From a virus (lineage: Duplodnaviria > Heunggongvirae > Uroviricota > Caudoviricetes), in the IMG/VR virus record IMGVR_UViG_3300032144_000002, positions 12,575-76,574 of that record: a stretch of 64,000 nt of DNA; one strand, given 5' to 3'. Position numbers and translations under genes: made by a program. Position 1 is the first letter of the stretch. Every line of letters begins with the position of its first letter. Positions 5,589-58,242 of the stretch are shown piece after piece. The notes under the pieces were generated by a model. That model searched no databases and was not told the DNA's origin. It saw only the letters and a program-made list of their open reading frames with translations.

Positions 5589-5589
5589 G

Positions 5590-8307: not shown

Positions 8308-8309
8308 CC

Positions 8310-12461: not shown

Positions 12462-12472
12462 GACACGGACAC

Positions 12473-14448: not shown

Positions 14449-14463
14449 TTTGCGGAGAAGTCC

Positions 14464-16674: not shown

Positions 16675-16913
16675 TGAACAGCAACAGACTTGTAGCGGCA
16701 GCGCAGATCGCGCTGTCAATTGTCTACACGTGGGGATACTTTGATGTTCTGAAGATATTCCTCGAAGGGCGCGTGAAGACCCCGAGTGAATGGAAAGATG
16801 TTGTGACTGCGTTGATAACGCTGCTGACTGCCGGAGTCTTGATGATTCTGCAGTTCTGGTTCCTTCGCAGTCGCCAGCAGGAGGCGCCGCCGGCGCCGAA
16901 AGAATTGGGTTGA
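16671..16913 (+). CDS. Holin (class II, two TM helices)
   Basis: 80 aa with two hydrophobic helices and charged C-terminus; ATGA-coupled to endolysin. Confidence 0.55.
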   Translation: MMNSNRLVAAAQIALSIVYTWGYFDVLKIFLEGRVKTPSEWKDVVTALITLLTAGVLMILQFWFLRSRQQEAPPAPKELG

Positions 16914-16945
16914 GTAGTAAAGTGTGGAAGTAAAGGAGAGATGAC

Positions 16946-21194: not shown

Positions 21195-21946
21195 TAACGA
21201 ATCTCCAGCTTGGTCGGCGGTTCAATGAAAGTAACAGTCTTATCTTCCGCAATGGCCTGCGGTGTGCCCCATTCATGGAGCTGATTACGGTCGATCATGC
21301 TGGCAAGCTTCGGTCCTTCGATATACTTGAACAGCCCGGAAAGGTATGGCTCGTCATCCGGCTTTGAGTCACGACGCCACTCGGCCCACGCATCAAGAAG
21401 AATGCGTGCTGACCGAAAGAAGAATGCCCCGGCCAGCGCGTACCGAGATATCGGCTTCTTCTCAATGCCGAAGTTGAAGTCTGGGTACGCGTCGATGTAC
21501 CCGAAGCGATACTCATTGGCGTCAAACACGACAGCGCCGGCGCTGGCCTTTGAGTTCGCGTACCAGTTGTGAGCGAACGTAGTTAGCCGGTGCTCCTTGA
21601 CAGCGAATGCGTTGTCCGAGTTCACCACGAGTAGCTGGTCATAGGCGCCAATGTGCGGTGCGCATGCCAGTCGTGCGACTGTGTCAGCCTGTCCCATGCT
21701 TGCACCGACCGGAATCACAACGTAGTCGGCCGGCAGCGCCGCAGCGAACGCTTCCCAGTCCTGCGGTCTGCATCCGATCAGTGGTGCCAGTGAATCCGAC
21801 ACAGATTCAACGACGTGTTCGATCATAGTGCGCCGTTTACCACGCCAGCCCATTTTCAACAGGCCCTTCGGCTTTTGGTATCCAGCCTCGGCAAACCTCC
21901 GGCTCTCGCCGGCAGCAGGTATCAACAGTTGCAGCATATTGTCCAC
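21194..21946 (-). CDS. Sugar-1-phosphate nucleotidyltransferase (NTP_transferase family; MurU/RmlA/LicC-like)
   Basis: N-terminal LIPAAGESRRF signature (G-x-G-x-R NTP-binding loop); ATGA overlap with ThyA-like gene. Confidence 0.75.
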   Translation of the reverse strand: MDNMLQLLIPAAGESRRFAEAGYQKPKGLLKMGWRGKRRTMIEHVVESVSDSLAPLIGCRPQDWEAFAAALPADYVVIPVGASMGQADTVARLACAPHIGAYDQLLVVNSDNAFAVKEHRLTTFAHNWYANSKASAGAVVFDANEYRFGYIDAYPDFNFGIEKKPISRYALAGAFFFRSARILLDAWAEWRRDSKPDDEPYLSGLFKYIEGPKLASMIDRNQLHEWGTPQAIAEDKTVTFIEPPTKLEIR

Positions 21947-22398
21947 CCCGTAGCAGCGCGCAGATACTTCGATGATTCAACGTTGTCTTCGAACATGATG
22001 CCGGCAGTATCGTACTGATTGAGAAAGGAAGCCTTGTCCTTCACGCCACACCCGGCCAGTATGGTGCCAACCTGAAGGCGAAACTTCTCGGCCAGAAGAT
22101 AAACGGATTCATACGATGCGCCGGTCAGAATGATCGGCTGCCTGTCCGTGGCAGCAAGGTGCCTGTACAACGACAGCAACGGCAGTGCCGTGACCATGCC
22201 CTCATAGATCCTTGTCCTGTACGCGGCGGCCTTGGCCTTCCGCAACGCCTTGGCCTCTTCTTCGGTTCCCTTGAACCACTCAACGAATGGCTTGCCGAAG
22301 AAATCCAGTGGCGGTGAGACGCCAGCGTCCACATACGCTTGCCTGACAGCATCCTTGGTGTCAAGAAGAGTGCCGTCTAGGTCGAAAGCGTATCGCAC
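21922..22398 (-). CDS. HAD-superfamily phosphatase; start assigned to GTG 22398 (AGGAGG RBS), alternative in-frame ATG at 22545 lies inside upstream gene
   Basis: YAFDLDGTLLDT is HAD motif I (DxDGT); small cap-less HAD like sugar-phosphate phosphatases. Confidence 0.55.
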   Translation of the reverse strand: MRYAFDLDGTLLDTKDAVRQAYVDAGVSPPLDFFGKPFVEWFKGTEEEAKALRKAKAAAYRTRIYEGMVTALPLLSLYRHLAATDRQPIILTGASYESVYLLAEKFRLQVGTILAGCGVKDKASFLNQYDTAGIMFEDNVESSKYLRAATGWTICCNC

Positions 22399-23177
22399 AT
22401 CGCCTCCTTTGACTTGTACCTGCCATTGATGAGGACGTCGTAGATCATCGCCGCATTGCGACGGCCCCACGTATAAGCCTGTACGTCGCCGGCCTTCGTG
22501 GCGTATGGCATCAACCGCAGGCAATGCACCATGCACCAGAACCACGCACGCTCATGGTGCTCTTCAGGCAGCCGTTCGAGGATGATCGCCACGGCCGGAC
22601 GCATGTTGTACTGCCAGCCTAGACGCAGAGTTTCCCAGCCGATCGCCGACTGCAGCATCTTACCGAGATCGACCGTGGTGTCGTTTGTCACGCGGCACGA
22701 CCATATCGGATCGATGATGGCCATGCTGCCGTCTTCTCGGAACATCATGTTCGACAACGTCGGGTCGCCATGCACCATGCACCAGCTATCGAGATCGACG
22801 TGCAACCGGTTCACCAGCTGAATCGACTGGTCAAACGATTTCGGTGAGCGATCGTGCAGTTCAGCGATCAGATGCACCACGGCATCGTCCCAATCCACCG
22901 CCGGCACAGCCTTACGCCGCCACACGTTGAGATGCAGAATGTCGACGGCCAATGCGAGCATATCGCCGACGTTCTGGTCGTTCATTCGCCGGCCGAAGTG
23001 TTCGGTCGGCTCGATCAGCTTCTCCATCATGTAGCCGGTTCGCGATGCCGCTATCACACGAGGCGTAACGGGGTACATGATGCAGCAGAGCGCTGCTTGA
23101 GCACCGAGGTTGTCGCCTTCTTTCAACACGCTGCTTGCCAACGCCGTCACGTTGGCCCCACTAAAACCTTTCTTCAT
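22377..23177 (-). CDS. APH/choline-kinase-fold kinase, candidate anomeric sugar kinase (AmgK/NahK/LicA-like)
   Basis: Brenner motif HGDPTLSNMMF and IIDP (D of DFG-equivalent) typical of aminoglycoside phosphotransferase-like small-molecule kinases; start at internal ATG MKKGF (track ORF starts at 23273 inside upstream gene). Confidence 0.6.
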   Translation of the reverse strand: MKKGFSGANVTALASSVLKEGDNLGAQAALCCIMYPVTPRVIAASRTGYMMEKLIEPTEHFGRRMNDQNVGDMLALAVDILHLNVWRRKAVPAVDWDDAVVHLIAELHDRSPKSFDQSIQLVNRLHVDLDSWCMVHGDPTLSNMMFREDGSMAIIDPIWSCRVTNDTTVDLGKMLQSAIGWETLRLGWQYNMRPAVAIILERLPEEHHERAWFWCMVHCLRLMPYATKAGDVQAYTWGRRNAAMIYDVLINGRYKSKEAMCDTLST

Positions 23178-23842
23178 CGGTATGCCCACTCCGGAGGACT
23201 GTAGTCGTAACGCTTGGCCATCTTGGCGATCTTGCTGCACATGCCTGGGTCCATGTCGTACAGGTCGTTCCATGTAACCCGCTTGGCCTTGAAGATTCCG
23301 CGCGACGCGTTCTTGGCGGTCTTCGGCACCTTCGGAATACTGAATGGCGGAAGACCCAGATCATCCAGCATGTTCTCCCACACATGCTGATCTTTCATGT
23401 CTTCGAGACGATACCGATTCTTCGTCAAACGCTCGCATCGCTTGTTCACCTCGTACCACGCATGCATGGCCTTGCGCAGTTTCGGTTTGAGGTCTTTTGG
23501 AATGACGCCATGCTTCTCAAGCCACTTCTGATGCTCGGTGCCCATCGTCTTCCAGATGGAACCAATGGTCTTCAACGGATCACGCACAAGATGCAGCACA
23601 TGCTTGAATTCGTAATCGCGCATACGCTGCCCGACATGGGCTATCAGCCCCTTCGGTGGCGTCGATGGCGACAACGGGTACTTCGGCGTGTCCATGAAGA
23701 AGTAGCATGATACGGTGCCGTCTTCGAGGACGTACTCGTGACCTACCCGCAGACCGACCTCCTTCAACATCCGGCACACGTAGGTAGTGCCGCTGCGACT
23801 GTTGCCGACAATCAACACGCGCCTTTTACTTGGAGCTTTCAT
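23174..23842 (-). CDS. Sulfotransferase-family P-loop protein (Sulfotransfer_3-like); alternative: P-loop kinase
   Basis: VLIVGNSRSGTTYV (5'-PSB-like P-loop) and HLVRDPLKTIGS (RDP-x-D/x-x-S 3'-PB-like motif). Confidence 0.5.
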   Translation of the reverse strand: MKAPSKRRVLIVGNSRSGTTYVCRMLKEVGLRVGHEYVLEDGTVSCYFFMDTPKYPLSPSTPPKGLIAHVGQRMRDYEFKHVLHLVRDPLKTIGSIWKTMGTEHQKWLEKHGVIPKDLKPKLRKAMHAWYEVNKRCERLTKNRYRLEDMKDQHVWENMLDDLGLPPFSIPKVPKTAKNASRGIFKAKRVTWNDLYDMDPGMCSKIAKMAKRYDYSPPEWAYR

Positions 23843-24668
23843 ACGCTTTCTTCCACTGCACCACCACCTCTTTTCTCGGAACGGACTTCAAGTAGGCACG
23901 ATCAACGACCTTGACAAAGCCCTTGTGCAGCTTGGCCAACTTCTCGGCGTCGGCGTTGGATGCTTCCATGCTGCGTTCTTCGCTGGCACCGCCGCGCGAG
24001 TTGTAGACTTGGTCTACCGTGAGCTCAGCCAGCACGCGATTCTCCCACCCCTTGCGCAGCAGTTGCAGGCAGTAGTCCATGTCTTCACGATGCTCGATAC
24101 GCCCGAGCTTGCACTCTGCTTCCACGATAGCGCAGTCGTAGCCGAGTGCGTAGACCATGCGGTAGTTGCGCAGCCATCGCAACCTTCTGATGGTTTCGTC
24201 GACTTCAAGATCGCCGAACTTCTTACTCAGGTTACGACGCTGCAGCGCTTCAACGCGGTTATTACCTTGGCGAGTACTGATGCCGACATGGGCGTACTCT
24301 GTGAGAGCCTTACCTACTCGCCGAAGACCACGTCCCACGTCCTCAACCGTAGGCTTGACCAGCTTGGTCGGGGCTTGCGTATAGTCACGCACGCTAAACC
24401 GCAGATCATCGTCGAGCATGAGGATATAGCTGTCACGCTCGCGTGCCCACCGATCAATGATCCACGCCCGCTTGCTGGCGATGGTCGTGATCTTCTTCGG
24501 CACCACTACCATGTCGCACCCGGACTGCTTGGGTAGCCCAAGCCTTTCGAACTCGCGCGCGTCGCTGCTGTCGCAGACCAGCGTCGTCTTCTTGCGCCAC
24601 TCAGGAGGCAGCTCACGCAGCGTAATCTGTCTGGTAACGCGCCGGTATGTCGGTATGACGATTCTCAT
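23826..24668 (-). CDS. GT-A fold glycosyltransferase (DXD motif)
   Basis: SYILMLDDDLRF DXD motif preceded by hydrophobic beta-strand; N-terminal MRIVIPTYRR Rossmann start. Confidence 0.5.
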   Translation of the reverse strand: MRIVIPTYRRVTRQITLRELPPEWRKKTTLVCDSSDAREFERLGLPKQSGCDMVVVPKKITTIASKRAWIIDRWARERDSYILMLDDDLRFSVRDYTQAPTKLVKPTVEDVGRGLRRVGKALTEYAHVGISTRQGNNRVEALQRRNLSKKFGDLEVDETIRRLRWLRNYRMVYALGYDCAIVEAECKLGRIEHREDMDYCLQLLRKGWENRVLAELTVDQVYNSRGGASEERSMEASNADAEKLAKLHKGFVKVVDRAYLKSVPRKEVVVQWKKAYESSK

Positions 24669-25672
24669 TTCAATTTCCCCAATACCTTGGATATCACACT
24701 CGGGTGGTGATTGTCAAGCGTCTTCTCAACGGCACGTCGCATGTCGCGGTAGTCTGGCCAGCCGATGTTCTCCACCAGATTGACAAGCTCTTGCGCGTCG
24801 GTTACCACGTAGCAGTTCTTGTCGATCTCCATGTCGCCCTTCTCTTTGGCCCAGCGCTTGTGCAGGATGTTGATGCATCCGGCATCCATGGCCTCGAGGA
24901 ATGAGTACTGCGTACCACCACCATCGCCCGAGTAGACAGAAAGATCCACGTTGATGCGGAAGTCTTTGGCCAGTGCTACCGCCTGCGCAGATCCCACGAA
25001 ACCGATGCCCGGCTTGTAGTGCCTGTATCGGTCCATCAAGTTCATGCGCAAGAAGTGTGTAGTCTCCTTGCCAAGGAACACGATACGCTTGTCAGCCTTG
25101 AGAGCTTGATTCGCATCGCACAGCATGTACGGGTGCTTGTTCGTAGCGATCATCGCGATAGAGCATGCAGCCTTTCGACGTACCCACTGCTCCTGTGCCG
25201 CAGTGCCGAACCTGCTGCGCACATACGGATGCGGCACGTACTTCGAGCGCTTGAAGTAACCCTGCAATCGCTCGCGGATGACGAGCACGCGCTCACCAGC
25301 CTCGCGCAACTTCAGTTCTTCAAGATGCGGGAACTGCTTGAACTCCTGCGTCGACTGTACGAAGATGTAGGCGCCGGCACGGAACAGCTTCTTGACCGTG
25401 TCCTCGTCTGCGAGATCGTCCGGGCGTGCAACCGCCGTGATGAGCGTGAGATCCTTCTTTGCAGCGCGCACAGCCTGCGCCACCGTGACGTTCTGGTACA
25501 CGGTGCCGTGGTGCTTCATGGTGCGAGCGTGTCCTTCCTCGCGATCTTTGTTGCACCTCAGTACGTTCACGTCCCAGCCTTCGGCCTTCAAGCCGTGGTA
25601 CATGTGAGCAGTGAACGTGGCAAAGCCGCCAACGTTCCACGGGCTCAGGTAAATCAAATTGATCTTTGGCAT
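24665..25672 (-). CDS. GT-B fold glycosyltransferase (GT4/GT1-like)
   Basis: C-terminal FLEAMDAGCINILHK resembles the E-x7-E / EAMAAG donor-binding motif of GT4 enzymes; start at ATG MPKINLIY (track ORF starts further upstream at 25807). Confidence 0.6.
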   Translation of the reverse strand: MPKINLIYLSPWNVGGFATFTAHMYHGLKAEGWDVNVLRCNKDREEGHARTMKHHGTVYQNVTVAQAVRAAKKDLTLITAVARPDDLADEDTVKKLFRAGAYIFVQSTQEFKQFPHLEELKLREAGERVLVIRERLQGYFKRSKYVPHPYVRSRFGTAAQEQWVRRKAACSIAMIATNKHPYMLCDANQALKADKRIVFLGKETTHFLRMNLMDRYRHYKPGIGFVGSAQAVALAKDFRINVDLSVYSGDGGGTQYSFLEAMDAGCINILHKRWAKEKGDMEIDKNCYVVTDAQELVNLVENIGWPDYRDMRRAVEKTLDNHHPSVISKVLGKLK

Positions 25673-25674
25673 GG

Positions 25675-25965
25675 CTACCCTTTGTTCTTTCGATACTTCC
25701 ACATCAGGAAGAGCCAGACTGCGTTGACCGTAGTCATGGACACGCCGCCGGCAAACGACGCCCACTGGCCAAGCGACGGATAGTAGTAAAGATTCCACAC
25801 GCCCCACGCTACAAAGAACGTGGTGGCCACCTTGGAAACTCCATGAGACTTCTTGTCGATCAGCATGCGTCGAACGTTCAGCAGTGCGAACATGCTGGCC
25901 AACAGTTCGAAGCTGGCATTGATGAGGTCATTAACTTGCACGGTGCTGCACCTTCTTGAGAACAC
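25675..25965 (-). CDS. Small polytopic membrane protein (3 predicted TM helices)
   Basis: 96 aa, three hydrophobic helices, basic C-terminus; adjacent to glycosyltransferases. Confidence 0.4.
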   Translation of the reverse strand: MFSRRCSTVQVNDLINASFELLASMFALLNVRRMLIDKKSHGVSKVATTFFVAWGVWNLYYYPSLGQWASFAGGVSMTTVNAVWLFLMWKYRKNKG

Positions 25966-26236
25966 GCTTCAGCAGTCGCTTGAGCGACTCCGACTCGCCG
26001 GGCTCGAATGAACTGCCGTCATCAATCGGTTTCAACAGATGACGCGCCACTAGTAGCGTCACGCCGTCAGCGTCCGCGCGCACCGAATACATGTCCCACC
26101 TATATTTGTAGTCGCCGATTTTGCCGGGGCCGTGAAACGTGACGACTGTGCCGGTGTCACCGACGTACTTACGGCAGTCAGGATCTATATTCAAGCCGCC
26201 GATGATTCGAACACGCTGCATGGGCTTCAGCTGCAT
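25931..26236 (-). CDS. Hypothetical protein (KOW/SH3-like small beta domain?)
   Basis: Start at internal ATG MQLKPMQRVRIIGG just after upstream stop. Confidence 0.3.
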   Translation of the reverse strand: MQLKPMQRVRIIGGLNIDPDCRKYVGDTGTVVTFHGPGKIGDYKYRWDMYSVRADADGVTLLVARHLLKPIDDGSSFEPGESESLKRLLKRVLKKVQHRAS

Positions 26237-26238
26237 GA

Positions 26239-27330
26239 CTACTCCTCGTCGTCGTACACGACGCGCGGTTCGCGTGGCGGATGGTAACGGCTGCGCGGCC
26301 TGCCCTCGTCCATCTTGACCCGCATGTACTTGTCGAACTCGCATAGCGAATGCTCGATTTCACGCAGCTCAAGCGGGCAATCGACACCAGTGCGCAGGTG
26401 CTTGCGCAAATCCTCCGGCATCGCCGCTAATAGCATGCGCATCGCTTCGATGTAGTCGATGCCTCCTACCTTCGTATGCTTACCATACATCAGGCGACGG
26501 ATGCCGCGCATGGCACCGGGTCCCGGGTTGGCCCACGAAAGTACGTCCTTCGCGCGGTGCAGCACCTTGGTGAACCGCAGGTCGCAGGCCAGCTCGTAAC
26601 CGATGAATCCGCCGATGGTAGGTACACTCATCAGCACTTCAACGGCGTACTGCATTGAAGGTCCTTCGTATTGATTGGTGCCCGGTATCTTGCGGCCGCG
26701 CCGTATCTTGTTGGCCAGCTTGATCTTGCGCTTCCACACATAGTCGACTGCGTCGCAGATGACTTCGATCTTCGGGTCGTCGCGCCCGCCGTTCGGAATG
26801 ATGTACGCGCCGGTGAAGATCTGCTCGTGGTCTTCGTCCTTGCGCTTGGTGAGGATGCGTATCGCGTCCTTCTTGTCCCACTTCTTCATGCCGAAGTACA
26901 GCGCATCGTAGGTCTCTGGCAGATTGAACAGCCGGAACATCACGTTGTGAAAAAGGATGTCGCTGGCCAGAACCTTCTTGGTGCCATTAGCCGAATTGAT
27001 CAGGTTGATATAGCGGTCTTGCCAAGCTAGACTGACGCGGTCGAGCTGGCGGTACACGTTGGTGAACTTGAACTCGTTTAGGATTCGATCCTGCGTCCAT
27101 GGGTACGGCGCTTTGTCCTTGAAGCGCTTCAGGTAGATGGCGTGGCGCTCGCTCATCCAATACCAGAACAGCTTCAGCTGCGCTGCCAGAAACTTGATCT
27201 TGGGTTTCTTCTTCGGCTTCTCCACCGACTTCGGCGAGTGCTTGCTGGCTATGCCGACGCGCGTAGCCTTCAGTCTGATTACACCGCGCACCAGCTTAGC
27301 TTTCTTCTTTCGCTTCACTTGTGACCTCAC
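26239..27330 (-). CDS. Conserved hypothetical protein with Lys-rich N-terminal tail (possible nucleic-acid binding) located at the head of the modification cluster
   Basis: 363 aa; N-terminal KRKKKAKL...KPKKKPKIK; conserved-looking core WYWMSERHAIY...NVYRQLDRVS; no family recognised by eye. Confidence 0.4.
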   Translation of the reverse strand: MRSQVKRKKKAKLVRGVIRLKATRVGIASKHSPKSVEKPKKKPKIKFLAAQLKLFWYWMSERHAIYLKRFKDKAPYPWTQDRILNEFKFTNVYRQLDRVSLAWQDRYINLINSANGTKKVLASDILFHNVMFRLFNLPETYDALYFGMKKWDKKDAIRILTKRKDEDHEQIFTGAYIIPNGGRDDPKIEVICDAVDYVWKRKIKLANKIRRGRKIPGTNQYEGPSMQYAVEVLMSVPTIGGFIGYELACDLRFTKVLHRAKDVLSWANPGPGAMRGIRRLMYGKHTKVGGIDYIEAMRMLLAAMPEDLRKHLRTGVDCPLELREIEHSLCEFDKYMRVKMDEGRPRSRYHPPREPRVVYDDEE

Positions 27331-32732: not shown

Positions 32733-33055
32733 TTCTTGAATGCCTCTTTGACTAATCCGGTCCAGTACCCGAGCTTGCTCTTGCCCCGGCCGCGCGGTGG
32801 CAGACGCTCAGTAGGAGGTTCTGGCGGTGCAGGCCGAGAGGCCGGTGCCGAAGCACCGACCTCCACGGACACGGTCCGCGTATCAACCACGCTGCTGCCG
32901 CTGACGTTGCCGCAGTACGGACAGACGCCACCAGAATCAAAGCGTTCGCGGTGATTGATCACGTGATCGCACCGCCGGCAAAGAACCCTCGCCTCGAAGC
33001 GTTTGGGCGCGTGGGTGTTGTTGGCCATGTCGATGAACCTACTTGGTTGGAACAT
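32729..33055 (-). CDS. Zinc-ribbon protein
   Basis: CRRC...CPYC. Confidence 0.3.
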   Translation of the reverse strand: MFQPSRFIDMANNTHAPKRFEARVLCRRCDHVINHRERFDSGGVCPYCGNVSGSSVVDTRTVSVEVGASAPASRPAPPEPPTERLPPRGRGKSKLGYWTGLVKEAFKK

Positions 33056-33917
33056 TCACGAACGGCACAGCGCCACCACCGAACATGTACGTCGGCAGCA
33101 CGCCGTTCCATTTCTGGACCGCTTCCCATTCCACGAGCTTGGCGTTCTGTTCGAGCGCTCTTGCACGGATGGAAATGGATTCAGCCTCGGCCTTCGCGTT
33201 CAGGATGGTGGCTTCGGCGTTGCCTCGCGCGGTTTCGATCTGCTGCGTTGCCTGCTCCTTGATCTGAACAGTTCGGTTCTGTTCTTCGATGGCCTTCTGC
33301 TCGGCGACTACCTTCGCCTCAACCGCGTTCTCGAACGCCGAAGTGTAGACGATGTCGGTCAGCTGAAAGCCGGCAACGATCACACGCCGCTTGGCCAGCG
33401 AAGCTGTGATGTTGGTCTCCATCAGACGTGTCGCAGCGTTGCGATTCTCGATCAGTGGCACCGCGTTGTGCTGCCCGACCTCACGCTTGATCTCCTCGAC
33501 CACGACCTGCCCGACCAGCTTGGCGGCCCAGTCCTCGCCGACTTCACGGTACACGAGGTGCGCGTCGGATGGCGACAGCGAGTACGTGAGCGTGAAGTTG
33601 ATGTTGGCCTGCTGCACGTCCTTGGTGTACGAGGACGTCTTGCCCTCCCACTTGAACTGGCGGATATCCATTTTCACCATGCGCTGCGTGAAGGGCATCA
33701 GGAAGTACAGGCCCTCGGGCAGCGACTGGTCACCGGGCTTGCCGAGCGTGACCTTCACGCCGCGATGGCCGGCTTCGACTGTGGTCATCGAGCATGACGC
33801 CATGATAAAGAAGAACAGAAGGCCGAGACCCAAGGCAACCCATTGCATCACGCGCCGCACGGTCTGCACCGTCTTGGCCCGCTCGATTGCCTGCATCTCT
33901 TCGTAACTGCGACTCAT
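33039..33917 (-). CDS. SPFH/band-7 (prohibitin/HflC-like) membrane protein
   Basis: N-terminal TM then HRGVKVTLGKPGDQSLPEGLYFLMPFTQRMVKMDIRQ... and C-terminal coiled coil, typical of the stomatin/prohibitin fold. Confidence 0.7.
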   Translation of the reverse strand: MSRSYEEMQAIERAKTVQTVRRVMQWVALGLGLLFFFIMASCSMTTVEAGHRGVKVTLGKPGDQSLPEGLYFLMPFTQRMVKMDIRQFKWEGKTSSYTKDVQQANINFTLTYSLSPSDAHLVYREVGEDWAAKLVGQVVVEEIKREVGQHNAVPLIENRNAATRLMETNITASLAKRRVIVAGFQLTDIVYTSAFENAVEAKVVAEQKAIEEQNRTVQIKEQATQQIETARGNAEATILNAKAEAESISIRARALEQNAKLVEWEAVQKWNGVLPTYMFGGGAVPFVNVPTK

Positions 33918-36288: not shown

Positions 36289-36483
36289 TCACCCGGTGCA
36301 AAGATCGGTCTTTACGACGACGTACGAGTCTTTGTCAGTGGCTATTCGCTGTACGCTTTCGGCGTCTTCGACTGCTGCTTCTGACGAGTACAGGCCGGTC
36401 ACCACTACGCGGTCATCCCCACCATGAAGGCGTTCTATCTCTTGCAGTCGTCTGATGAAGTCTCTGAGATTCAGTGTCATCAT
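36289..36483 (-). CDS. Small hypothetical protein (MMTLNLRDFIRRLQEIERLHGG...), ATGA-coupled to polymerase stop
   Basis: Track ORF 36289-36798 extends spuriously upstream over polymerase 3' end. Confidence 0.3.
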   Translation of the reverse strand: MMTLNLRDFIRRLQEIERLHGGDDRVVVTGLYSSEAAVEDAESVQRIATDKDSYVVVKTDLCTG

Positions 36484-38444
36484 GCGGCCCTCGCCCAGGA
36501 TGTCCTGGAAGTTTTGGCGGTTGCAGTCATCGGCACGTTGAACTTCATGTCGCACATGGCCCGAGCAATACGCTTGCCGTACTTCTCGTGCGGTGCCATT
36601 GCCACGAGCTCGTCGTGCACCTGCACAGCGATGCGGGCTTCCGGTACTTGCTCTTTCACGTTGATCATACCCTGCTTGGTCACGTCGGCCGCGCTTGGCT
36701 GAATCTTGTAGTTGAGCATCTTGTACTCGAAGGTCATCCACCGTTTGAACTTCTCGCTGTACTTCGGCTCTTCGCAGTAGTACTCGCGGCCGCCCCATGT
36801 GCGCAGTGGCTTGTCGTGGTTGGCCAGACGCTTGAGGTCCTTCATGAGCCGGCGGATTCCGGGCACCGCGTCGAGGATGCCATCACGCACCAGCTTGGCA
36901 GTCTTCCTGTCGCTGTCCATGCCGATGGCCAGCTTGTCGACACCCATGCCGTAGATCAGACCGAACACCACGGTCTTGATCGCCTTGCGTGGAAAGTCGA
37001 GGCCCGTCAGATCCTTCACCAGCCCACGGCAGAACTCGTGCACGTCGAGGCTCGGGTTCTCAAGGTACGCGCGCATGAGCACGCCTTCCTCGAAGTGGGC
37101 AAGGATGCGCAGCTCTTGCTGGTCATAGTCGACGCAGATCATCACCGTGTTTTCATCCGGTATGATGAAGTCGCGTAGCCCGATGAACTGGTAGTCGTAC
37201 TCTTCCTTGAGGAAGGCTTGCATCTTCAGCAGCACTTCCTTGTTCTTCGACTCGTCGACGTTAGCGCTGATGTTCTGCAGGTTCGGGTCGCTGCTACTGT
37301 ATCGGCCCGACCGAGCACCACCGCCGCCCTCATCGTAGCCACGCACCTGATTGAACTTGGGCAGTAGCCGGTCGCCGGTGATCTCGCACTGCTCAAGCCA
37401 CGGGTGCATGAATGAGTTCAGATTCTTGTTCGCGACTGAACGCATCGCCAGCAGGTCGAGCAGCAGCGGGTCGTTGCATCCGTCGCGCAGGTTGGCGATC
37501 TTGGTGCTGACCTTGCCGGTAGGCGTGCGTGCTATGCGATCCAGCTTGCCAGCACGCATCATAGCGTCGGCCAGTTGTGCGCCGCTGTTGAGATTGAAGC
37601 CCTTCGGGTTGGCGTCGCTCTTCATGGCCTTCGGGTCGAGCCGCAGCTTCTTGGCTATGCGCCGAAGGATATCGCGGTCGAGTTCCTCGAAGACGCTGGT
37701 GGCCTTCTTCAGACGCTTGACGTCTATGCGGACACCGCTACGCTCCATCTCCAGCGTGATGGGCACGCACTTGAGCTCGCGCTCGTAGGCCTCGGTCATC
37801 CCGCGACGTTCGACCTCGGGCCGCATCTTCTTGTCCAGACGATAGGTCCGGTCCACGTCACCGAGCGCGTAAGGTTTAACGATATGCGCCGGCGCTTTGT
37901 CGATGTGCTCGCCCCATTTCGTGGGTTTCGCGCCCTTGACATTCTCAAGTATCCAGTCACGCAGGTTGTCCTGTTCTTCTGGTGGCAGGTCTAGTTCTTT
38001 CGCAGCCAAGCCTTTCAAGTCGAGTTCTGGTGCATGCGGGTCCAGAAGGAACGCTTGAAAGAGCGTGTCATCGTACCGCTTCGGCGGCTTCAGGCCGAGG
38101 TGGCACTCGGCAACGTCCATGTCGAATGCGCCGTGATGAAAGAGCACGCGATCCGCTTGGTAGGCATCCTTGATCTTTGAGCGTGCCGTTGCGATGTCAC
38201 AGTTGTTGCCTTCAGGGTGGCCCCACGCAAGGAACTCTTTCTCACCTGAAGGCCACCTAATCGCGGCGCTTACCGGCTTCGGCGGATACTGCGGACGGTT
38301 GTCGATCCTGCCCGTTTCAAAGTCGATAGTCGATGTTTCCATTTGGTCTCCGAGTACGAGCATGATCGCGAAGGTTGTGAGTGAACTTTCTTGTGCGCGG
38401 GTTGTATAGACAATCCGTCCATCCGATTCCAATAGCCCCGTCAA
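36480..38444 (-). CDS. Family A (PolA-type) DNA polymerase with N-terminal 3'-5' exonuclease domain; true start probably internal ATG near 38342 (METSTIDFETG)
   Basis: Motif A DYDQQELRILAHF, motif B RKAIKTVVFGLIYGMG, motif C VQVHDELV; exo I DFETG. Confidence 0.8.
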   Translation of the reverse strand: MTGLLESDGRIVYTTRAQESSLTTFAIMLVLGDQMETSTIDFETGRIDNRPQYPPKPVSAAIRWPSGEKEFLAWGHPEGNNCDIATARSKIKDAYQADRVLFHHGAFDMDVAECHLGLKPPKRYDDTLFQAFLLDPHAPELDLKGLAAKELDLPPEEQDNLRDWILENVKGAKPTKWGEHIDKAPAHIVKPYALGDVDRTYRLDKKMRPEVERRGMTEAYERELKCVPITLEMERSGVRIDVKRLKKATSVFEELDRDILRRIAKKLRLDPKAMKSDANPKGFNLNSGAQLADAMMRAGKLDRIARTPTGKVSTKIANLRDGCNDPLLLDLLAMRSVANKNLNSFMHPWLEQCEITGDRLLPKFNQVRGYDEGGGGARSGRYSSSDPNLQNISANVDESKNKEVLLKMQAFLKEEYDYQFIGLRDFIIPDENTVMICVDYDQQELRILAHFEEGVLMRAYLENPSLDVHEFCRGLVKDLTGLDFPRKAIKTVVFGLIYGMGVDKLAIGMDSDRKTAKLVRDGILDAVPGIRRLMKDLKRLANHDKPLRTWGGREYYCEEPKYSEKFKRWMTFEYKMLNYKIQPSAADVTKQGMINVKEQVPEARIAVQVHDELVAMAPHEKYGKRIARAMCDMKFNVPMTATAKTSRTSWARAA

Positions 38445-38661
38445 CGTCCCGTATCTCGTAGGTGCGCGACTGGAGTTCTACCAGTGGTATGTACCTGAAG
38501 TGACCGTAATGTATACCGTCAGTCCCGCGCGTACTCTGGTAGGCCCACATGCGATCTTTCGGCTGAAGCCAGTATCTCACCTGCTTGTCGATGCATCGTT
38601 CAAGCCACGCCTTGTCGCTTCCTTTGTATCTGCTGTGCAGCACTGACGGTATGTCTTCCAT
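38317..38661 (-). CDS. Hypothetical protein
   Basis: 114 aa, ATGA overlap with upstream NAMPT-like gene stop. Confidence 0.3.
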   Translation of the reverse strand: MEDIPSVLHSRYKGSDKAWLERCIDKQVRYWLQPKDRMWAYQSTRGTDGIHYGHFRYIPLVELQSRTYEIRDVDGAIGIGWTDCLYNPRTRKFTHNLRDHARTRRPNGNIDYRL

Positions 38662-40136
38662 CAGCGCGCCAGATCGGCCTCGGCCCTAGCCCTGATGTCC
38701 GCCAGCGTCTGGCACTTGGCAATGAAGTGACCATCAGCCCAGACCGGCGTCAGAAGTGACGGCTCGCTCATCACATTGCCTCTGCTGTTGATGCCGTCGA
38801 TCAGAGTGAGCTCGCCGGTATCCTTGCGGCGCACAACATGCAACCGCCCGATCGCCGACTTCTTGCCGGAGCCGGTGACAGGATCCTTCTGCATCATGTA
38901 GCCGCAGCCATCACGCATCGTCCATGTCGCCTTGATGGCGAATGAATGTACGTCACGCGTCGTGTACTGGTAGGTGTAGGAGCCGATACCGAACACCACG
39001 TTCGTGGAAGCGAAGCCCATGTACTCCAGCCGTTCACAGATGTCCTGCGCTCTGGCCTCGGTGATCGAGTCGCCATAGATGGCGCCGATGTGCGGATCGA
39101 GCACTTTGTAACCCTGCTCGTTTGTCGTACCACCGAACAGATCCCACAACGTCTGAATGACGCCGTAGTAGGCCGGCGATCCAGCTTCAGCTGTCGGGTC
39201 ACCGCAAAGGATGTCTGCAGGGTCACCGCTGTCTGGTCGGATCACCACCTTGCCATTGCGGGCCATGATCTTGTCCTTGAGCGTCGGCAGGATGTTCGTG
39301 AGAACATGCCAGAGATCCCAGGTATCCGACACGATCGACACGATGCCGACCGGGTACAGATCGATGATGCGCCGGTAGGTTTCGAGCTCATCGTCCTGTC
39401 CGCCGGCGCACATGACCGAGTGCTCCGTTGCAGGCACGCTGCCGCCGATCAAGCCGGTGGCGTCGTAGCTGGCCCGCAGCAGATCGATTGCCGGCAGACA
39501 GTCGGTGCCGGTGAAGAACAGGAGGTGGGCCATGCCTGACAATCCAGCGGCGTGGGCTCCTGGCATCCCGCGGAAGCTGAAGTCATGGCCTTGCCATTGA
39601 ACGCCGGCGTTGCTGCCGGTCGTCTTGATCGCCCACTTGTCGAGGATCTTGCGGTAGCGCGCGGCAGTAGTTGCCGACGTGCATGGCATCCACAGCTCCG
39701 ACGAGATCAGCGTCTCGAAGTAGTTGGTCAGCCAGAAGAACTCCGGCAGCGTGTTCTCGATTGTGAACATGGGCACGCCGAGCGGAACAGCGGTGCCTTC
39801 CGGCAGAGCACATATGCGCAGCGGCAGGTAGCCGAGGTCATGTAGCGCGCCGATGTGGGCCACACCAATGTCGTTCGGACCGAAGTATCCGTCCAGCAAT
39901 TCCTGGTATCGCTGCAGCACGACCATCTTCGGCTTCAGGAAGAACTCCTGTCGCGCCTTCTCCATGAAGTACTCCTGCAGGAAGTGCTGCAGGCCGAAGA
40001 AGGTGACGTGCGTCTGGCCGTTGATGCGCGAGCTGCGCGCGGTGTAGTTCGAGTACACGAACTGCGTGCCGGCCGGGTATTGGCGCCGATGGTCGAGCTT
40101 GTAACCATCGGTCAGGTGAATGAACTCAGGGGACAT
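38661..40136 (-). CDS. Nicotinamide phosphoribosyltransferase-family protein (NadV/NAMPT-like; may be NARP1 'Namat' nicotinamide ADP-ribose transferase)
   Basis: N-terminus MSPEFIHLTDGYKLDHRRQYPAGT and overall 491-aa length match NAMPT family. Confidence 0.8.
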   Translation of the reverse strand: MSPEFIHLTDGYKLDHRRQYPAGTQFVYSNYTARSSRINGQTHVTFFGLQHFLQEYFMEKARQEFFLKPKMVVLQRYQELLDGYFGPNDIGVAHIGALHDLGYLPLRICALPEGTAVPLGVPMFTIENTLPEFFWLTNYFETLISSELWMPCTSATTAARYRKILDKWAIKTTGSNAGVQWQGHDFSFRGMPGAHAAGLSGMAHLLFFTGTDCLPAIDLLRASYDATGLIGGSVPATEHSVMCAGGQDDELETYRRIIDLYPVGIVSIVSDTWDLWHVLTNILPTLKDKIMARNGKVVIRPDSGDPADILCGDPTAEAGSPAYYGVIQTLWDLFGGTTNEQGYKVLDPHIGAIYGDSITEARAQDICERLEYMGFASTNVVFGIGSYTYQYTTRDVHSFAIKATWTMRDGCGYMMQKDPVTGSGKKSAIGRLHVVRRKDTGELTLIDGINSRGNVMSEPSLLTPVWADGHFIAKCQTLADIRARAEADLAR

Positions 40137-40998
40137 TGTGAATCATCTCCAGGATCGGGTTGAGTGAATAGGTCGTGACGTTGTTCTGCTCGACGCTGAC
40201 GACCGGATGGTCGGCCACGGCCGGCATGCGATAGAAGCTGTCGGTCGTGTAGATATGCTTGTAATACTCCAGCAGCGACGACACGCCCTTGCTGAAGATA
40301 CCATGGCTGACGAAGAGCTCCAGCTCGGCGCCATGCTCCGCCACTTCTTCGCAGTGGAAGGCGTAAGCCAGCAGATTGAACGTACCGCCACCGTCGCAGA
40401 TGTCGTCGACGACTAGATACTTACCGACCTTGTTCAGTGTCGGTAGCACGTAGTTCGACAGCTTGCCGTCGCTCGGGTTGCGCTCTTTGGTAGCTTCGAT
40501 CAGCTTGGCGTTTGGGCAGTACGCTTCCATGAAATCGTGCGCCCTTGACAACGCGCCGTGGTCTGGCGCGATGACGAAGTCAACGTCTGGCCGCATCGGT
40601 AGCTTGAGGTCGGCCGGCATCCAGTTTGTGGGCCGCCAGTTGTACCCGTGCAGCGGCGAATGGATGTCGAAGACATGCACGTTGCGGCCCGAGTTGAACA
40701 GCCGTGTCATCATGCCCTTGGTAATCGGCGCGGTGCCGTCACTCTTGTCTTGACGAGCTGCCGGGCTGTACGGCATGAACAGCACTGGCTCGTAGCGCGA
40801 GCCTAGCAGTTCTCGTCTGCGATGCAACGCATCCCACACGCACGCACCAAGCCCAACGTCGTTCCATGTTCGGGCTTTCAGATGCAGAACCACTCGCTCA
40901 TCGAGCGGGATGTCAGGCAGCTTCGCGTGAGGCTCGCCGCCGGGAAAGAACAAGGTCTCCACACCGGAGGCCCCGTAGTCGTCACTGTCAATGATCAT
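40126..40998 (-). CDS. Ribose-phosphate pyrophosphokinase (PRPS)-like protein (may be NARP1 'Adps' ADP-ribose pyrophosphate synthetase)
   Basis: PRTase fold motif YLVVDDICDGGGTF and PRPS-like N-terminal half; overlaps NAMPT-like gene by 11 nt. Confidence 0.7.
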   Translation of the reverse strand: MIIDSDDYGASGVETLFFPGGEPHAKLPDIPLDERVVLHLKARTWNDVGLGACVWDALHRRRELLGSRYEPVLFMPYSPAARQDKSDGTAPITKGMMTRLFNSGRNVHVFDIHSPLHGYNWRPTNWMPADLKLPMRPDVDFVIAPDHGALSRAHDFMEAYCPNAKLIEATKERNPSDGKLSNYVLPTLNKVGKYLVVDDICDGGGTFNLLAYAFHCEEVAEHGAELELFVSHGIFSKGVSSLLEYYKHIYTTDSFYRMPAVADHPVVSVEQNNVTTYSLNPILEMIHNVP

Positions 40999-41437
40999 CC
41001 TTAACTCCGTCGGCTCTTACGCCGGTATTGAACAACACTCTTACAGCTCGATCGTCCCAAAGCTGGTGCATGTACTGGTCTTTGATATTCGTGATGGGTA
41101 GCTCGCGGCCGATGTGCTCTACGCACCACTTGGCAATGGCCGCCCGATTGATCTCCACGTTCATGGATCGGTTCAGCTTGTCAGCATGGCTTGACTTGGC
41201 ATCGAATGCCAGCGCGACGCGAGCCGTGAAGATGCGAACCTCGATGCCAAGTTCTAGCCATCGCTTGACGCGCGCCACCATTAGCGGTATCGGCCTACCG
41301 ATCTGTCCAGCCTTGTAGTCGCCAGACTCGTACTCGGCCAGCGTGCCATCAAGGTCAACGCCGATCCAGTCGCCCGGCTGCATGGTCCGCATCGAATCAA
41401 GTGTTCCGCGCACTGCCTCGTCGACTGATGTGCTCAT
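40988..41437 (-). CDS. HAD-like small phosphatase/nucleotidase (start at internal ATG MSTSVDEA)
   Basis: WIGVDLDGTLAEY resembles HAD motif I; track ORF start 41587 is upstream in GC-rich reading. Confidence 0.4.
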   Translation of the reverse strand: MSTSVDEAVRGTLDSMRTMQPGDWIGVDLDGTLAEYESGDYKAGQIGRPIPLMVARVKRWLELGIEVRIFTARVALAFDAKSSHADKLNRSMNVEINRAAIAKWCVEHIGRELPITNIKDQYMHQLWDDRAVRVLFNTGVRADGVKDDH

Positions 41438-43419: not shown

Positions 43420-44724
43420 TCACTTCTTGCTGAAGCGTGAGCCCTTGCGGGACTTCACTTTACCCTTGCGGGCAGACTTGCCTTTCGGCTCTTCGTCTTC
43501 TTCGTCTTCTTCGTCTTCGTCTTCGTCTTCGTCGTCAGACTCGTCATCGTCGCGAGAAGATTCGCCGCGGCGTTTTCCACCATCCTTGCCACCGCCTCGA
43601 CCTGACTTGCGACTCCGCGAGGAAGTTTCTTCGTCATCCTCGTCATCTTCTTCGTCGTCTTCGTCATCATCTTCGTCATCTTCTTCATCGTCCTCATCGT
43701 CTTCTTCGTCTTCTTCGTCACGACGGGACTTGCGCTTTCCTTTGCCGCGCTTGGGCTTTTCGTCTTCGTCTTCGTCTTCATCCTCATCCTCCTCGTCGTC
43801 TTCATCGTCCTCGTCCTCGTCTTCGTCTTCATCCTTGCGCGACTTGGACTTCTTGCCCTTGGCCGGCTTGGCCTTCTTGTCCTTGGACTTCTTGCCCTTG
43901 CGCGGCTTGTCGTCATCGTCCTCGTCCTCGTCTTCTTCCGCCGTGTCATCGAACGGCGTCAGGAGCTCGTCGCGAACTTCTTCGCGCTTCTCCTTGATGG
44001 CGGATACCACTTCCTTGTCGCTGATCTTCTCGTCGATGTCGAACAGGACCACCGGGTAGTCCTCCTCCGAGTCGAACGACAGCTCGACGACCACCGTGTA
44101 ATACGGGCGGTTGAGCTTGTCACTGCACTCCTTCACGAACTTCGACCAGTGCTTGACGCTGGTCGGGGCGAGTTCCAGGAATGCGACGTTGGCGTTCTCG
44201 ATGTCCTCGAGGTCATCCTCATGGATGAGCGCCAGACGCCGGCGCTGCTGGCACGCCTTGGCACGACCACGCCCACTGCCCCACTCGTTCATCGGGCAGC
44301 CGTCGCAGGCATCGGCCTTCGGCGTCTTGACGTTCTCGTGCGGAGCGATCTCGTCTTCCTCGGCGTCGATCGCGAAGCACACCGGGATGTTCGGCTTGTC
44401 CTCGTCGAACTTCTTGCCGTAGTACGTGTTCAGGTACGCGAAGTCGATGATCACGGCCTTGATGGTCTTGCCGAGGTTCTCGCCATCGAACGTGAAGCGG
44501 CGGGCTTTTGTCGAGAGCCGGTTGCCCAGCCCTCCGCCACCGCCGCCCTTCTCGCGAGCGCGCTCATCGCTGGCTTCCTTGGCCAGATCCTTTTCCCAGT
44601 CAAAGCTCTTACCGCCCTTTTCTTTCTTGCCCTTGACCTTCTCTTTCGCCATCTTATCCTCTCTTGCGGATTGACACAGACACCTTCTTGAAAATCTCGA
44701 TACCCGGCACAGCTTCGCCGTCAT
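43420..44724 (-). CDS. Polyampholyte protein 2: Cys-containing N-terminal domain (CDGCPMNEWG...KACQQRRRLAL) then about 170 aa poly-Asp/Glu with Lys/Arg-rich spacers
   Basis: Composition and architecture parallel ORF 27542-28939; antisense ORFs are Ser-rich artefacts. Confidence 0.55.
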   Translation of the reverse strand: MTAKLCRVSRFSRRCLCQSAREDKMAKEKVKGKKEKGGKSFDWEKDLAKEASDERAREKGGGGGGLGNRLSTKARRFTFDGENLGKTIKAVIIDFAYLNTYYGKKFDEDKPNIPVCFAIDAEEDEIAPHENVKTPKADACDGCPMNEWGSGRGRAKACQQRRRLALIHEDDLEDIENANVAFLELAPTSVKHWSKFVKECSDKLNRPYYTVVVELSFDSEEDYPVVLFDIDEKISDKEVVSAIKEKREEVRDELLTPFDDTAEEDEDEDDDDKPRKGKKSKDKKAKPAKGKKSKSRKDEDEDEDEDDEDDEEDEDEDEDEDEKPKRGKGKRKSRRDEEDEEDDEDDEEDDEDDDEDDEEDDEDDEETSSRSRKSGRGGGKDGGKRRGESSRDDDESDDEDEDEDEEDEEDEEPKGKSARKGKVKSRKGSRFSKK

Positions 44725-56343: not shown

Positions 56344-56922
56344 TTACAGTCTCTTGGTATCACCATCGGCCGAACGAGTGTCCATGCGACTGTTGTAGTC
56401 GCTGTACATCCCCAGTCCGGTGTTCAGAAAGCGGTACGTTCGACAGACAGCAAAGTCTGTCACGTTGAATGAGTAGAGCTGCAGTCCGTAGTTATCCAGC
56501 TCATGCGCCAGACTCTCGGCCACGAACTTTTCGAGCTCAGTTGCCGTGATCTGCGACAGTGATCTTTCACGCATGAACGATGCGATGGCGCCTTGGGCTT
56601 TCTGCGTGATCGTGTCGTGCGCGTTGTGAAGCTTCGTGTAGAGCTTCAGTATGTCGTGCACCTCATACCGCATTGAGCTGGCGATGCTGATTGGCTTGCC
56701 ATCGGCAGTCGTGATGATCTGACCTTCCACAAAGTGAGCCCTCAGTCTGGTTGGCTGCACGAATGTCTGGTGGATCAACGGTATGCGCAAGTGAACACCC
56801 GGTTGCAGAAGCGTGACGTGCTTACCAAGCTTCACACGTAGCCCTTGCTCCCATGGGGATATGGTGATCCACCATTGGAACAGCTCTTTCAAGCCTTCCT
56901 TGATCTGTTGGACGATGTTCAC
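56344..56922 (-). CDS. Second SPFH/band-7-like domain protein
   Basis: WITISPWEQGLRVKLGKHVTLLQPGVHLRIPLIHQTFV...YEVHDILKLY follows the N-terminal beta-rich pattern of SPFH domains. Confidence 0.5.
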   Translation of the reverse strand: MNIVQQIKEGLKELFQWWITISPWEQGLRVKLGKHVTLLQPGVHLRIPLIHQTFVQPTRLRAHFVEGQIITTADGKPISIASSMRYEVHDILKLYTKLHNAHDTITQKAQGAIASFMRERSLSQITATELEKFVAESLAHELDNYGLQLYSFNVTDFAVCRTYRFLNTGLGMYSDYNSRMDTRSADGDTKRL

Positions 56923-57643: not shown

Positions 57644-58242
57644 AGCCCCGGTCTCCCTGTCTTGCAGAGCCAGTGCGTCGGCTCCCTGTTGCCTTCAAGT
57701 TGAATCTGAGTGAACGAGTTCTCGTAATACCACCAGCCGACGTCTGCCGGGTTGCGGTCATCCATCTGCATGGCTTCTTCAAGCGTGCGATACCACGCGC
57801 TCCATGTAACCCACACGGTAGCCATGTTTCTACCGACGATCACCTCATCGCCATCCTTCGGCGCAGTCTCAATCGGCTTCCATCGCATCTCAGGCGTCTG
57901 GTAGAGCCCTTCTGGCTGAAACGAGAATTCCATGATCTCGGCCTGCTTGATCTTGTCACCGTCATAGATCGACGGCATGAAACCAGGATTGCCAAGTATG
58001 GCGCACAGATCATCTCTGCTGACGCCTTCTTGAAAGGTCACCACGATTCTTCCGTTGGCGTTGCTCGTGACGAATCCGAGCGGCGGCTTCGTGTGATCAT
58101 GCTGCATGAGGATTGGCACGTTCGGGTGATCGCCGATTCTACGGAATCCCTGCATCGGCGCCGTCCTTCCACACTCGCCGCAGACAGTGACTTGGATGTT
58201 TCGCCGTCCGCACTTGCAGGTCCAGTTAGAAAGCAGGCTCAT
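57640..58242 (-). CDS. DUF551-domain protein with N-terminal zinc ribbon
   Basis: WTCKCGRRNIQVTVCGECG; WKPIETAPKDGDEVIVGRNMATVWVTWSAWY matches DUF551 tryptophan-rich motif. Confidence 0.45.
   Translation of the reverse strand: MSLLSNWTCKCGRRNIQVTVCGECGRTAPMQGFRRIGDHPNVPILMQHDHTKPPLGFVTSNANGRIVVTFQEGVSRDDLCAILGNPGFMPSIYDGDKIKQAEIMEFSFQPEGLYQTPEMRWKPIETAPKDGDEVIVGRNMATVWVTWSAWYRTLEEAMQMDDRNPADVGWWYYENSFTQIQLEGNREPTHWLCKTGRPGL

Follow-up and report, generated by a model that had tools for sequence, protein, structure and literature searches.

Two overlapping genes in the viral record IMGVR_UViG_3300032144_000002 raise the question of whether a phage encoding homologs of ribose-phosphate pyrophosphokinase (PRPS or Prs) and nicotinamide phosphoribosyltransferase (NAMPT) would use them to rebuild nicotinamide adenine dinucleotide (NAD+) cleaved by host immunity or to carry out ordinary NAD+ salvage. 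The genes are located in a stretch of 64,000 nucleotides (64 kb; positions 12,575 to 76,574 of the record) that is referred to below as the window. A sequence-only reading of this DNA had placed two explanations side by side: NAD+ reconstitution pathway 1 (NARP1), an anti-defense system of phages, and salvage with a phage-encoded supply of phosphoribosyl pyrophosphate (PRPP).

NARP1 requires two enzymes. Adps is a phage Prs-like enzyme that pyrophosphorylates ADP-ribose (ADPR) to ADPR-pyrophosphate (ADPR-PP), and Namat is a Nampt-like enzyme that combines ADPR-PP with nicotinamide to give NAD+ (Osterman et al., bioRxiv 10.1101/2024.02.11.579819). The same study found that Adps forms a phage clade nearly always adjoining Namat, that NARP1 is present in 859 of ~20,000 phages (4.3%), and that a second pathway, NARP2, consists of a PRPP-preferring Nampt and an Nmnat and is confined to phages without Adps (bioRxiv 10.1101/2024.02.11.579819). 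The NARP1 enzymes of phage DyoEdafos produce NAD+ from ADPR in vitro (bioRxiv 10.64898/2026.05.28.727677).

The gene pair and its predicted pathway

The pair comprises the following features (aa, amino acids; nt, nucleotides):

40126..40998, minus strand: adps, PRPS-like gene, 290 aa, ATG start; predicted ADP-ribose pyrophosphokinase
38661..40136, minus strand: namat, NAMPT-like gene, 491 aa, ATG start; predicted nicotinamide ADP-ribose transferase
40126..40136, minus strand: overlap of the adps stop with the namat start, 11 nt, sequence ATGTCCCCTGA

The adjacent minus-strand open reading frames (ORFs) and 11-nt overlap described by the sequence-only reading are present at these positions, and an independent gene call on L004, a metagenome contig (Logan SRR9694932), agrees, returning the same two genes and an identical 491-aa protein. 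The 290-aa ORF includes YLVVDDICDGGGTF, while the N-terminus of the 491-aa ORF is MSPEFIHLTDGYKLDHRRQYPAGT. The junction between the genes reads ...GGAGATGATTCACA-ATGTCCCCTGA, and a Shine-Dalgarno-like GGAG is located 11–14 nt 5' of the namat ATG. The 11-nt overlap couples the translation of adps and namat. Third-position GC is high in both genes (0.77 and 0.80), resembling that of the adjacent DNA polymerase A gene (polA). In profile searches, the NAMPT-like protein matches phrog_448 (E = 2.6e-191), NF006629 (E = 1.4e-159), and PF04095/PF18127, and the PRPS-like protein matches phrog_619 (E = 1e-44). At the level of sequence, the homology of the pair to ribose-phosphate pyrophosphokinase and nicotinamide phosphoribosyltransferase is unambiguous and far above chance.

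Based on the observed gene structure, families, signature residues, and cassette conservation of the pair, the two genes are predicted, with a probability of roughly 0.86, to constitute NARP1, in which Adps would catalyze the conversion of ADPR and ATP to ADPR-PP and AMP, and Namat the conversion of ADPR-PP and nicotinamide to NAD+. First, a host NADase (Thoeris ThsA, DSR1/2, SIR2-HerA, SEFIR, and similar) would split NAD+ into ADP-ribose and nicotinamide. Next, Adps, as a remodeled PRPP synthetase, would move the β,γ-pyrophosphate of ATP onto the 1'' hydroxyl of ADP-ribose. Finally, Namat, as a remodeled Nampt, would displace the pyrophosphate of ADPR-PP with nicotinamide, forming NAD+ directly. 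Such a pathway would enable phage replication in hosts with NAD+-cleaving Thoeris, DSR, SIR2-HerA, and SEFIR-type systems.

Signatures of Namat and Adps

The features that distinguish Namat from Nampt have been defined structurally. Namat possesses an adenine "selectivity clamp" that is not found in Nampt and is made up of a helix motif, GS-X-Φ-X-Φ-X-Φ-TRD, where X is aromatic, and a variable SCL loop, which supplies a stacking Arg, Lys, or Tyr (Arg40 in the SPbetaL1 enzyme) (PMC12774641). A search of all PDB sequences with the 491-aa protein returned the SPbetaL1 Namat entries 9W5X/9W5W as best matches (516 bits), compared with 229–248 bits for human, rodent, and Xanthomonas Nampt. The protein was also aligned with the Namat of SPbetaL1, FADO, ICP1, and BrutonGaster, and 25 ligand-contact positions of SPbetaL1 were mapped onto it. 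All 25 are either identical or replaced as in other validated Namat. The Namat-specific features are present in the aligned 491-aa sequence. In the N-terminal region, the SPbetaL1 residues D13, Y15, and R40 correspond to D10, Y12, and R37, the last being the stacking Arg of the SCL loop (...TARSSR(37)INGQ... aligned with ...TPRTSR(40)VEDI... of SPbetaL1). The Nampt-type catalytic core is intact, with F189, R192, D215, R306, and D308 represented by F186, R189, D212, R300, and D302, and with the catalytic His at H239, within PATEHS. The clamp helix (SCH) motif is GSYTYQYTTRD at residues 385–395, in which G390-S391, F392, Y396, and T398-R399-D400 of SPbetaL1 become G385-S386, Y387, Y391, and T393-R394-D395. 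Mammalian NAMPT has GSGGGLLQKLTRD at this position; the clamp comparison with salvage-type enzymes is based on mammalian NAMPT and the published analysis. Overall, the protein is 50–52% identical to the Namat of SPbetaL1 and DyoEdafos.

Two other PDB entries, 9KE8/9KEO, score 409 bits and carry the motif GAQTYQRNTRD. They are absent from the searched literature and are not assigned to any phage in the collection.

The corresponding distinction between Adps and Prs is also described. Adps retains the Prs acceptor surface and the catalytic Lys185, and a "PP loop" (Cys215–Ser220) and hairpin are remodeled into the ATP donor site (PMC13586617). The regulatory flexible (RF)/allosteric loop of Adps is degenerate, and the C-terminal α11–α12 module is absent (PMC13586617). 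In ICP1 Adps, mutations at H121, D161, D212, D213, and K185 lower or abolish activity (PMC13586617). All five of these mutagenesis-defined residues are kept in the 290-aa protein, where H121, D161, K185, and D212/D213 correspond to H113, D146, K171, and D198/D199. Likewise, the adenine contacts F18 and R87 correspond to F18 and R82, and C215-D216-G217 and F221 to C201-D202-G203 and F207. Seven of these residues (F18, R82, H113, D146, K171, D198, and D199) are invariant across the 120 nearest homologs. As the catalytic residues are ancestral and also kept in Prs, they indicate an active enzyme and do not indicate its specificity.

Specificity is better judged from the donor site and the regulatory loop. 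The donor-site loop reads VDDICDGGGTFN, a sequence found unchanged in 102 of the 120 nearest homologs, and it matches the loops of the active DyoEdafos (VDDICDGGGTFA) and ICP1 (VDDICDGAASFK) enzymes and not that of E. coli Prs (VDDMIDTGGTLC). The Thr of the Prs DTGGT motif in the ribose-5-phosphate loop, which presumably contacts the 5'-phosphate of ribose 5-phosphate, is replaced by Gly203 in the 290-aa protein. The lid residue is Phe (F207) as in all Adps, in place of the Leu found in Prs, and the hairpin fits the pattern K-x-R-[ND]-x-x-x-G-x-[IL]. In addition, DKS--DGTAP, a short acidic RF loop, takes the place of the basic DRRVRSARVP of Prs. The C-terminus is less clear-cut: with 25 residues fewer than E. 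coli Prs, the protein has neither the filament-interface residues nor equivalents of R301, R302, N305, and E307, but a short segment of that region is kept.

Scores against curated hidden Markov models (HMMs) follow the same pattern. The 290-aa protein scores 49.3 bits on the Prs model TIGR01251 (cut-off 113) and 33.1 bits on the Prs model NF002320 (curated score 297), compared with 422.7 and 532.6 bits, respectively, for E. coli Prs as a control. The validated Adps of ICP1 (98 bits), SPbetaL1 (106 bits), and FADO (96.5 bits) also fall under the TIGR01251 cut-off. Taken alone, phrog_619 cannot tell Adps from Prs, and only its difference from the TIGR01251 score is informative, which amounts to −230 for E. 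coli Prs, +105 for the 290-aa protein, and between about +140 and +187 for validated Adps. In BLASTP comparisons, the protein matches DyoEdafos Adps at 35% identity (102 bits), ICP1 Adps at 71 bits, and E. coli Prs at 33 bits. By its sequence, the 290-aa protein thus departs from canonical Prs in its curated HMM scores, its DDxxDTGGT loop, and its basic regulatory flexible loop.

The closest characterized relatives of the pair are those of DyoEdafos, a Mycobacterium phage (gp77 Adps, gp79 Namat), and of actinophages such as Gordonia phage BrutonGaster, whose Adps is 35–38% and whose Namat is 52–54% identical to the proteins of the window. Their Adps loop (VDDICDGGGTF) is near-identical to that found here, their RF loop is similarly short and without the Phe92 of ICP1, and their Namat clamp (GS[FY]TYQ[HY]NTRD) is of the same type. 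In these phages the two genes share a strand and either adjoin or overlap each other; however, DyoEdafos has an RyR-domain glycosidase, RyDEP, between them, while the genes described here overlap directly and the window contains no RyDEP homolog. The founding or structurally characterized members from SPbetaL1 and FADO (Bacillus), Bas63 (Escherichia), and ICP1 (Vibrio) share the Adps-to-Namat order and are more distant (Namat 46–50% identical; Adps 24–28% in a MAFFT alignment, with 31.6% over 190 aa for ICP1 by BLASTP). The mutationally defined Adps residues, the NAD+ contacts of Namat, and the clamp Arg and aromatics of these members are nevertheless all kept. In contrast to the sequence found here (DDICDGGGTF), the Bacillus Adps loop is DDLSS[FY]GGTF. 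In ICP1, the RF loop is longer and includes Phe92, and the two genes are separated by 180 nt in place of the 11-nt overlap.

Several points weigh against the assignment of the pair to NARP1. The reactions, their order, and the anti-defense role are predictions from the homologs in Bas63, SPbetaL1, FADO, ICP1, and DyoEdafos, and the analysis covers 64 kb, with the whole genome spanning ~76 kb or more. The 290-aa protein is 24–35% identical to validated Adps and 21–27% identical to E. coli Prs. It has no counterpart of the ICP1 adenine contact F92, which is likewise absent from the Adps of SPbetaL1, FADO, and DyoEdafos, and its C-terminal NPILEMIHNVP can still be matched, in the sequence alignment, to the beginning of the Prs α11 region. 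On phrog_619, E. coli Prs scores 193 bits and validated Adps 243–285 bits, compared with 154 bits for the 290-aa protein. In a neighbor-joining tree, the protein falls within the Adps set, in a group with DyoEdafos and BrutonGaster; the tree, however, contains a single Prs outgroup and saturated distances, such that the Adps–Adps distances (0.79–0.87) equal the Adps–Prs distances (0.85–0.89). Finally, Namat still converts PRPP to nicotinamide mononucleotide (NMN) in vitro (PMC12774641), and some ordinary salvage by the pair is consequently possible.

Two lines of evidence were set aside in this comparison. The phrog_619 match was rejected as proof of Adps identity because E. coli Prs outscores the 290-aa protein on this profile, and the distance tree was dropped as a test of clade membership on account of its outgroup and saturation. 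As the distances are uninformative, membership in the Adps clade is based on signatures and synteny and not on a robust tree. A further possibility, weaker than the extended form of NARP1 considered below, is that the protein belongs to a divergent Adps subfamily with a shifted acceptor range, given its 49 bits on the Prs model and a phrog_619 score below those of validated Adps.

The activity of Namat toward PRPP also bears on classic salvage, in which PRPP would be synthesized by the 290-aa protein and NMN by the 491-aa protein, acting as a NadV/Nampt, with host NadR/NadD-type adenylyltransferases converting the NMN to NAD+. The genes would then form an auxiliary metabolic module that boosts NAD+ during replication. 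Both proteins do fall within the Prs and Nampt superfamilies, and the folds and catalytic cores of cellular Prs and Nampt/NadV are shared with the pair (the ancestral His/Asp/Lys/DD of Prs and Phe/Arg/Asp/His/Arg of Nampt). Nevertheless, salvage of this kind appears highly improbable. Cellular class I Prs have DDMIDTGGTL, a Leu lid, a basic RF loop, and a longer C-terminus, and human Nampt has no adenine clamp. The 290-aa protein, in contrast, lies far under all curated Prs models, with Gly in place of the DTGGT Thr and a short acidic loop in place of the basic one, and its partner carries a clamp that is required only for ADPR-PP. No Nmnat was found in the 64-kb window, and the salvage-type phage Nampt of NARP2 occurs in phages without an Adps homolog (bioRxiv 10.1101/2024.02.11.579819). 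Comparison with characterized Adps and Namat on one side and Prs and Nampt on the other, which the sequence-only reading had suggested, thus favors NARP1 over Prs and NadV salvage: the Namat clamp is present, and the 290-aa protein retains the catalytic Lys together with the loop of Adps type. That reading had regarded retention of all canonical PRPP-synthetase features as counting against NARP1, and the DTGGT Thr, the basic RF loop, and the HMM score are lost.

The cassette, its neighbors, and possible partner enzymes

Searches of a 5.8-billion-protein collection returned 1,855 homologs of the 290-aa protein, the best 120 of which are all 270–308 aa in length; a scan of IMG/VR with the Adps protein found no relatives. 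In the three nearest relatives with genomic context, L010, L012, and L014, Adps is 59%, 56%, and 62% identical, respectively, and the Namat gene overlaps the 3' end of Adps by 8 nt (L010 and L012) or 11 nt (L014). For comparison, the overlap is 4 nt in BrutonGaster and 1 nt in SPbetaL1. Where the Namat of the relative is complete, the clamp motif reads GSYTYNYTTRD (L010) or GSYTYQLVTRD (L012). The flanks of the relatives are unrelated, with RecT, SSB, and a metallophosphatase in one and RtcB and RlaP in another. The maintenance of the overlapping pair amid unrelated flanks in L010, L012, and L014 indicates that it travels as a cassette, in keeping with published accounts of NARP1.

In the window, the pair is part of an overlapping run in which a HAD-like gene is joined by 11 nt to adps, adps by 11 nt to namat, and namat by 1 nt to a 114-aa ORF, followed by polA:

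40988-41437 (to 41587 with a GTG start), minus strand: HAD-type phosphatase, upstream of adps, its stop overlapping the adps start by 11 nt
38317-38661, minus strand: orf114, 114 aa, downstream of namat, 1-nt overlap with the namat stop
36480-38444, minus strand: polA, DNA polymerase A, directly downstream of the adps-namat pair

The HAD protein is 149 aa as called on L004 and contains the motifs GVDLDGT, IFTAR, and IKD...WDDRA. It has 19 phage homolog records, and those examined do not adjoin NARP1. In Ralstonia phage phiRSL1, DNA polymerase I immediately follows the homolog, and neither Adps nor Namat is encoded within 5 kb of it; the same applies to the homologs in Rhizobium phage RHph_X66 and in Tunturi_5. 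In Tunturi_5, the homolog makes up the N-terminal part of a protein of 1489 aa whose annotation is Nudix.

For orf114, a word-based search matched only the protein itself, whereas an exhaustive HMMER search found ~30 small phage proteins with the family core W.S..G.DG.RYGSY...R.Y.IE..D....I.WTD.LYDPRT. The protein matches no Pfam or PHROG family, and scans of small members of the family likewise returned no Pfam domain. The larger proteins scanned from the family have GNAT, Ig-like, and FGE-sulfatase matches, which are uninformative on the function of the orf114 domain. With an alignment, AlphaFold gave a confident model of orf114, with a predicted local distance difference test (pLDDT) score of 78.6, compared with 41.6 for single-sequence AF2. 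The model has no match among solved structures (best E = 0.09), and its matches in BFVD are only to uncharacterized phage proteins. No similarity of orf114 to RyDEP was found. NARP1 genes are missing from the 5 kb around the orf114-family member in three unrelated phage contigs.

The position of these two genes raises the possibility of an extended form of NARP1, in which the HAD phosphatase and/or orf114 would convert phosphorylated or cyclized ADPR (ADPR-1''-phosphate, cyclic ADPR isomers) to ADPR. They would be independently evolved functional analogs of RyDEP or of the Macro-domain phosphatase Adpp of NARP1-AP, taking aRES or Thoeris products as input. Overlaps couple the translation of both genes to that of the pair, the upstream protein has the full set of HAD phosphatase motifs, and accessory genes inside NARP1 operons have precedent. 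Furthermore, homologs of HAD (61% identical) and orf114 (39% identical) are found within ~1.4 kb upstream of Adps in L014. The order in that contig, however, is HAD ... orf114 ... Adps-Namat, whereas the window has HAD-Adps-Namat-orf114-polA. This difference fits a shared replication-module backbone, to which HAD and orf114 belong, with the cassette inserted separately at different points in the two lineages. The HAD homologs located away from Adps and Namat, the three orf114-family contigs without nearby NARP1, the presence of the pair without a HAD or orf114 homolog in L010 and L012, and the lack of RyDEP similarity or a solved-structure fold match for orf114 further argue against an extension, which is very unlikely. 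Neither gene was retained as a candidate accessory of NARP1, the HAD phosphatase being unsupported by synteny in phiRSL1, RHph_X66, Tunturi_5, L010, and L012, and orf114 by the three unrelated family members. The most economical interpretation places HAD and orf114 in the phage backbone, outside NARP1.

Other partner enzymes known from NAD+ reconstitution systems were sought in the window. No Nmnat, Nudix, Macro, RyR, or CTP_transf_like family is among the Pfam families listed for the 86 predicted window proteins, and NMNAT and Nudix sequence motifs are absent from the six-frame translation of the 64-kb window. A comparison of DyoEdafos RyDEP with all window ORFs and the six-frame translation gave a best match of only E = 0.4. 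Consequently, NARP2, NARP1-AP, and an extension by RyDEP are not supported. NARP2 (NadV/Nampt and NatV/Nmnat of Vibrio phage KVP40) also rebuilds NAD+ with a phage Nampt-family enzyme against NAD+-depleting defense, but it is without Adps, needs Nmnat, and has a Nampt that prefers PRPP; the pair described here has Adps and an ADPR-PP clamp, and no Nmnat or Nudix signature is found in the window. NARP1-AP (Adps, Adpp, and Namat of Vibrio phage Gary) shares the NARP1 core with the pair, and in both cases this core is accompanied by an adjoining phosphatase gene. The phosphatase of NARP1-AP is a Macro-domain protein encoded between the two genes, however, while that described here is of HAD type and upstream, with homologs elsewhere linked to polA.

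The phage and the place of its probable NARP1 pair

A gene map based on third-position GC divides the window into tail and structural genes on the plus strand (1–18 kb) and a long minus-strand block (18–64 kb). Pfam scans of the 86 predicted window proteins identified gene transfer agent (GTA)-like tail proteins, a muramidase, DNA polymerase A, an ATP-dependent ligase, a SNF2 helicase, a NADAR protein, and a cluster with a 5-hydroxymethyldeoxyuridine (5-hmdU) DNA kinase, thymidylate synthase, and glycosyltransferase. These families indicate a tailed phage, and the pair is located in the early/replication gene block of this uncultured phage. The placement of the pair in an overlapping minus-strand run upstream of polA suggests that it is probably co-produced with replication proteins. 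A scan for promoters and terminators gave counts no higher than chance. The remaining features of the window that bear on the identity and DNA of the phage are as follows:

1-18200, plus strand: GTA-like tail module (Rcc01698_C, Phage_BR0599, DUF2793, phiJL001 Gp84 N-terminal domain)
20106-21194, minus strand: thymidylate-synthase homolog, in the modification cluster 20106-27330
21194-21946, minus strand: MobA-like nucleotidyltransferase, in the same cluster
22377-23273, minus strand: APH-like kinase, in the same cluster
23826-24668, minus strand: TET-associated glycosyltransferase family, in the same cluster
26239-27330, minus strand: 5-hmdU DNA kinase, in the same cluster

PolA is at most 37% identical to that of any GenBank phage, with best matches in Stenotrophomonas and Pseudoxanthomonas phages, and no near-identical DNA was found among GenBank phages, the sole match being 126 bp at 78%. 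Taken together, these results suggest a phage without a close cultured relative. GTA-like tail families of this kind are typical of Alphaproteobacteria phages. Based on the tail genes and the best matches of polA, the host is probably a proteobacterium and not an actinobacterium. The phage is probably an uncultured, proteobacterial siphophage, although its tail families and its 37% polA matches point to different proteobacteria. The 20106-27330 cluster resembles a thymidine-hypermodification pathway and suggests that the phage DNA may contain modified thymine.

Additional genes in the minus-strand block were noted. A NADAR protein (58239-58862; PF08719, 6.8e-28), a member of an ADP-ribose/NAD-metabolism family, is the second ADP-ribose-related gene in the phage and lies ~17 kb away from adps and namat. 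As NADAR enzymes reportedly undo the ADP-ribosylation of DNA bases, this protein would be a candidate for a counter-defense function. A 434-aa protein (43420-44724, minus strand) matches phrog_27714, a family of unknown function, in its N-terminal part, while its C-terminal half is of extreme low complexity, with Asp/Glu runs alternating with Lys/Arg-rich patches; the opposite strand would read as long Ser runs. Two separate SPFH/Band-7 proteins are encoded at 33039-33917 and 56344-56922, both on the minus strand.

The pair is a divergent but ordinary member of the already-described and common NARP1 system, and its architecture is not novel. Knowledge of the NAD+-centered conflict between phages and their hosts is accordingly unchanged. 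What the locus adds is a NARP1 of divergent sequence, carried by an uncultured and probably proteobacterial siphophage without a close cultured relative, as well as a clean example of a mobile two-gene cassette that has entered a replication-module backbone shared by related phages at different points. It also indicates that two published signatures, the clamp motif of Namat and the donor loop of Adps, suffice to separate NARP1 from Prs/Nampt salvage in raw metagenomic sequence. For the biology of the phage, the presence of the pair would imply that its hosts carry NAD+-depleting immunity.

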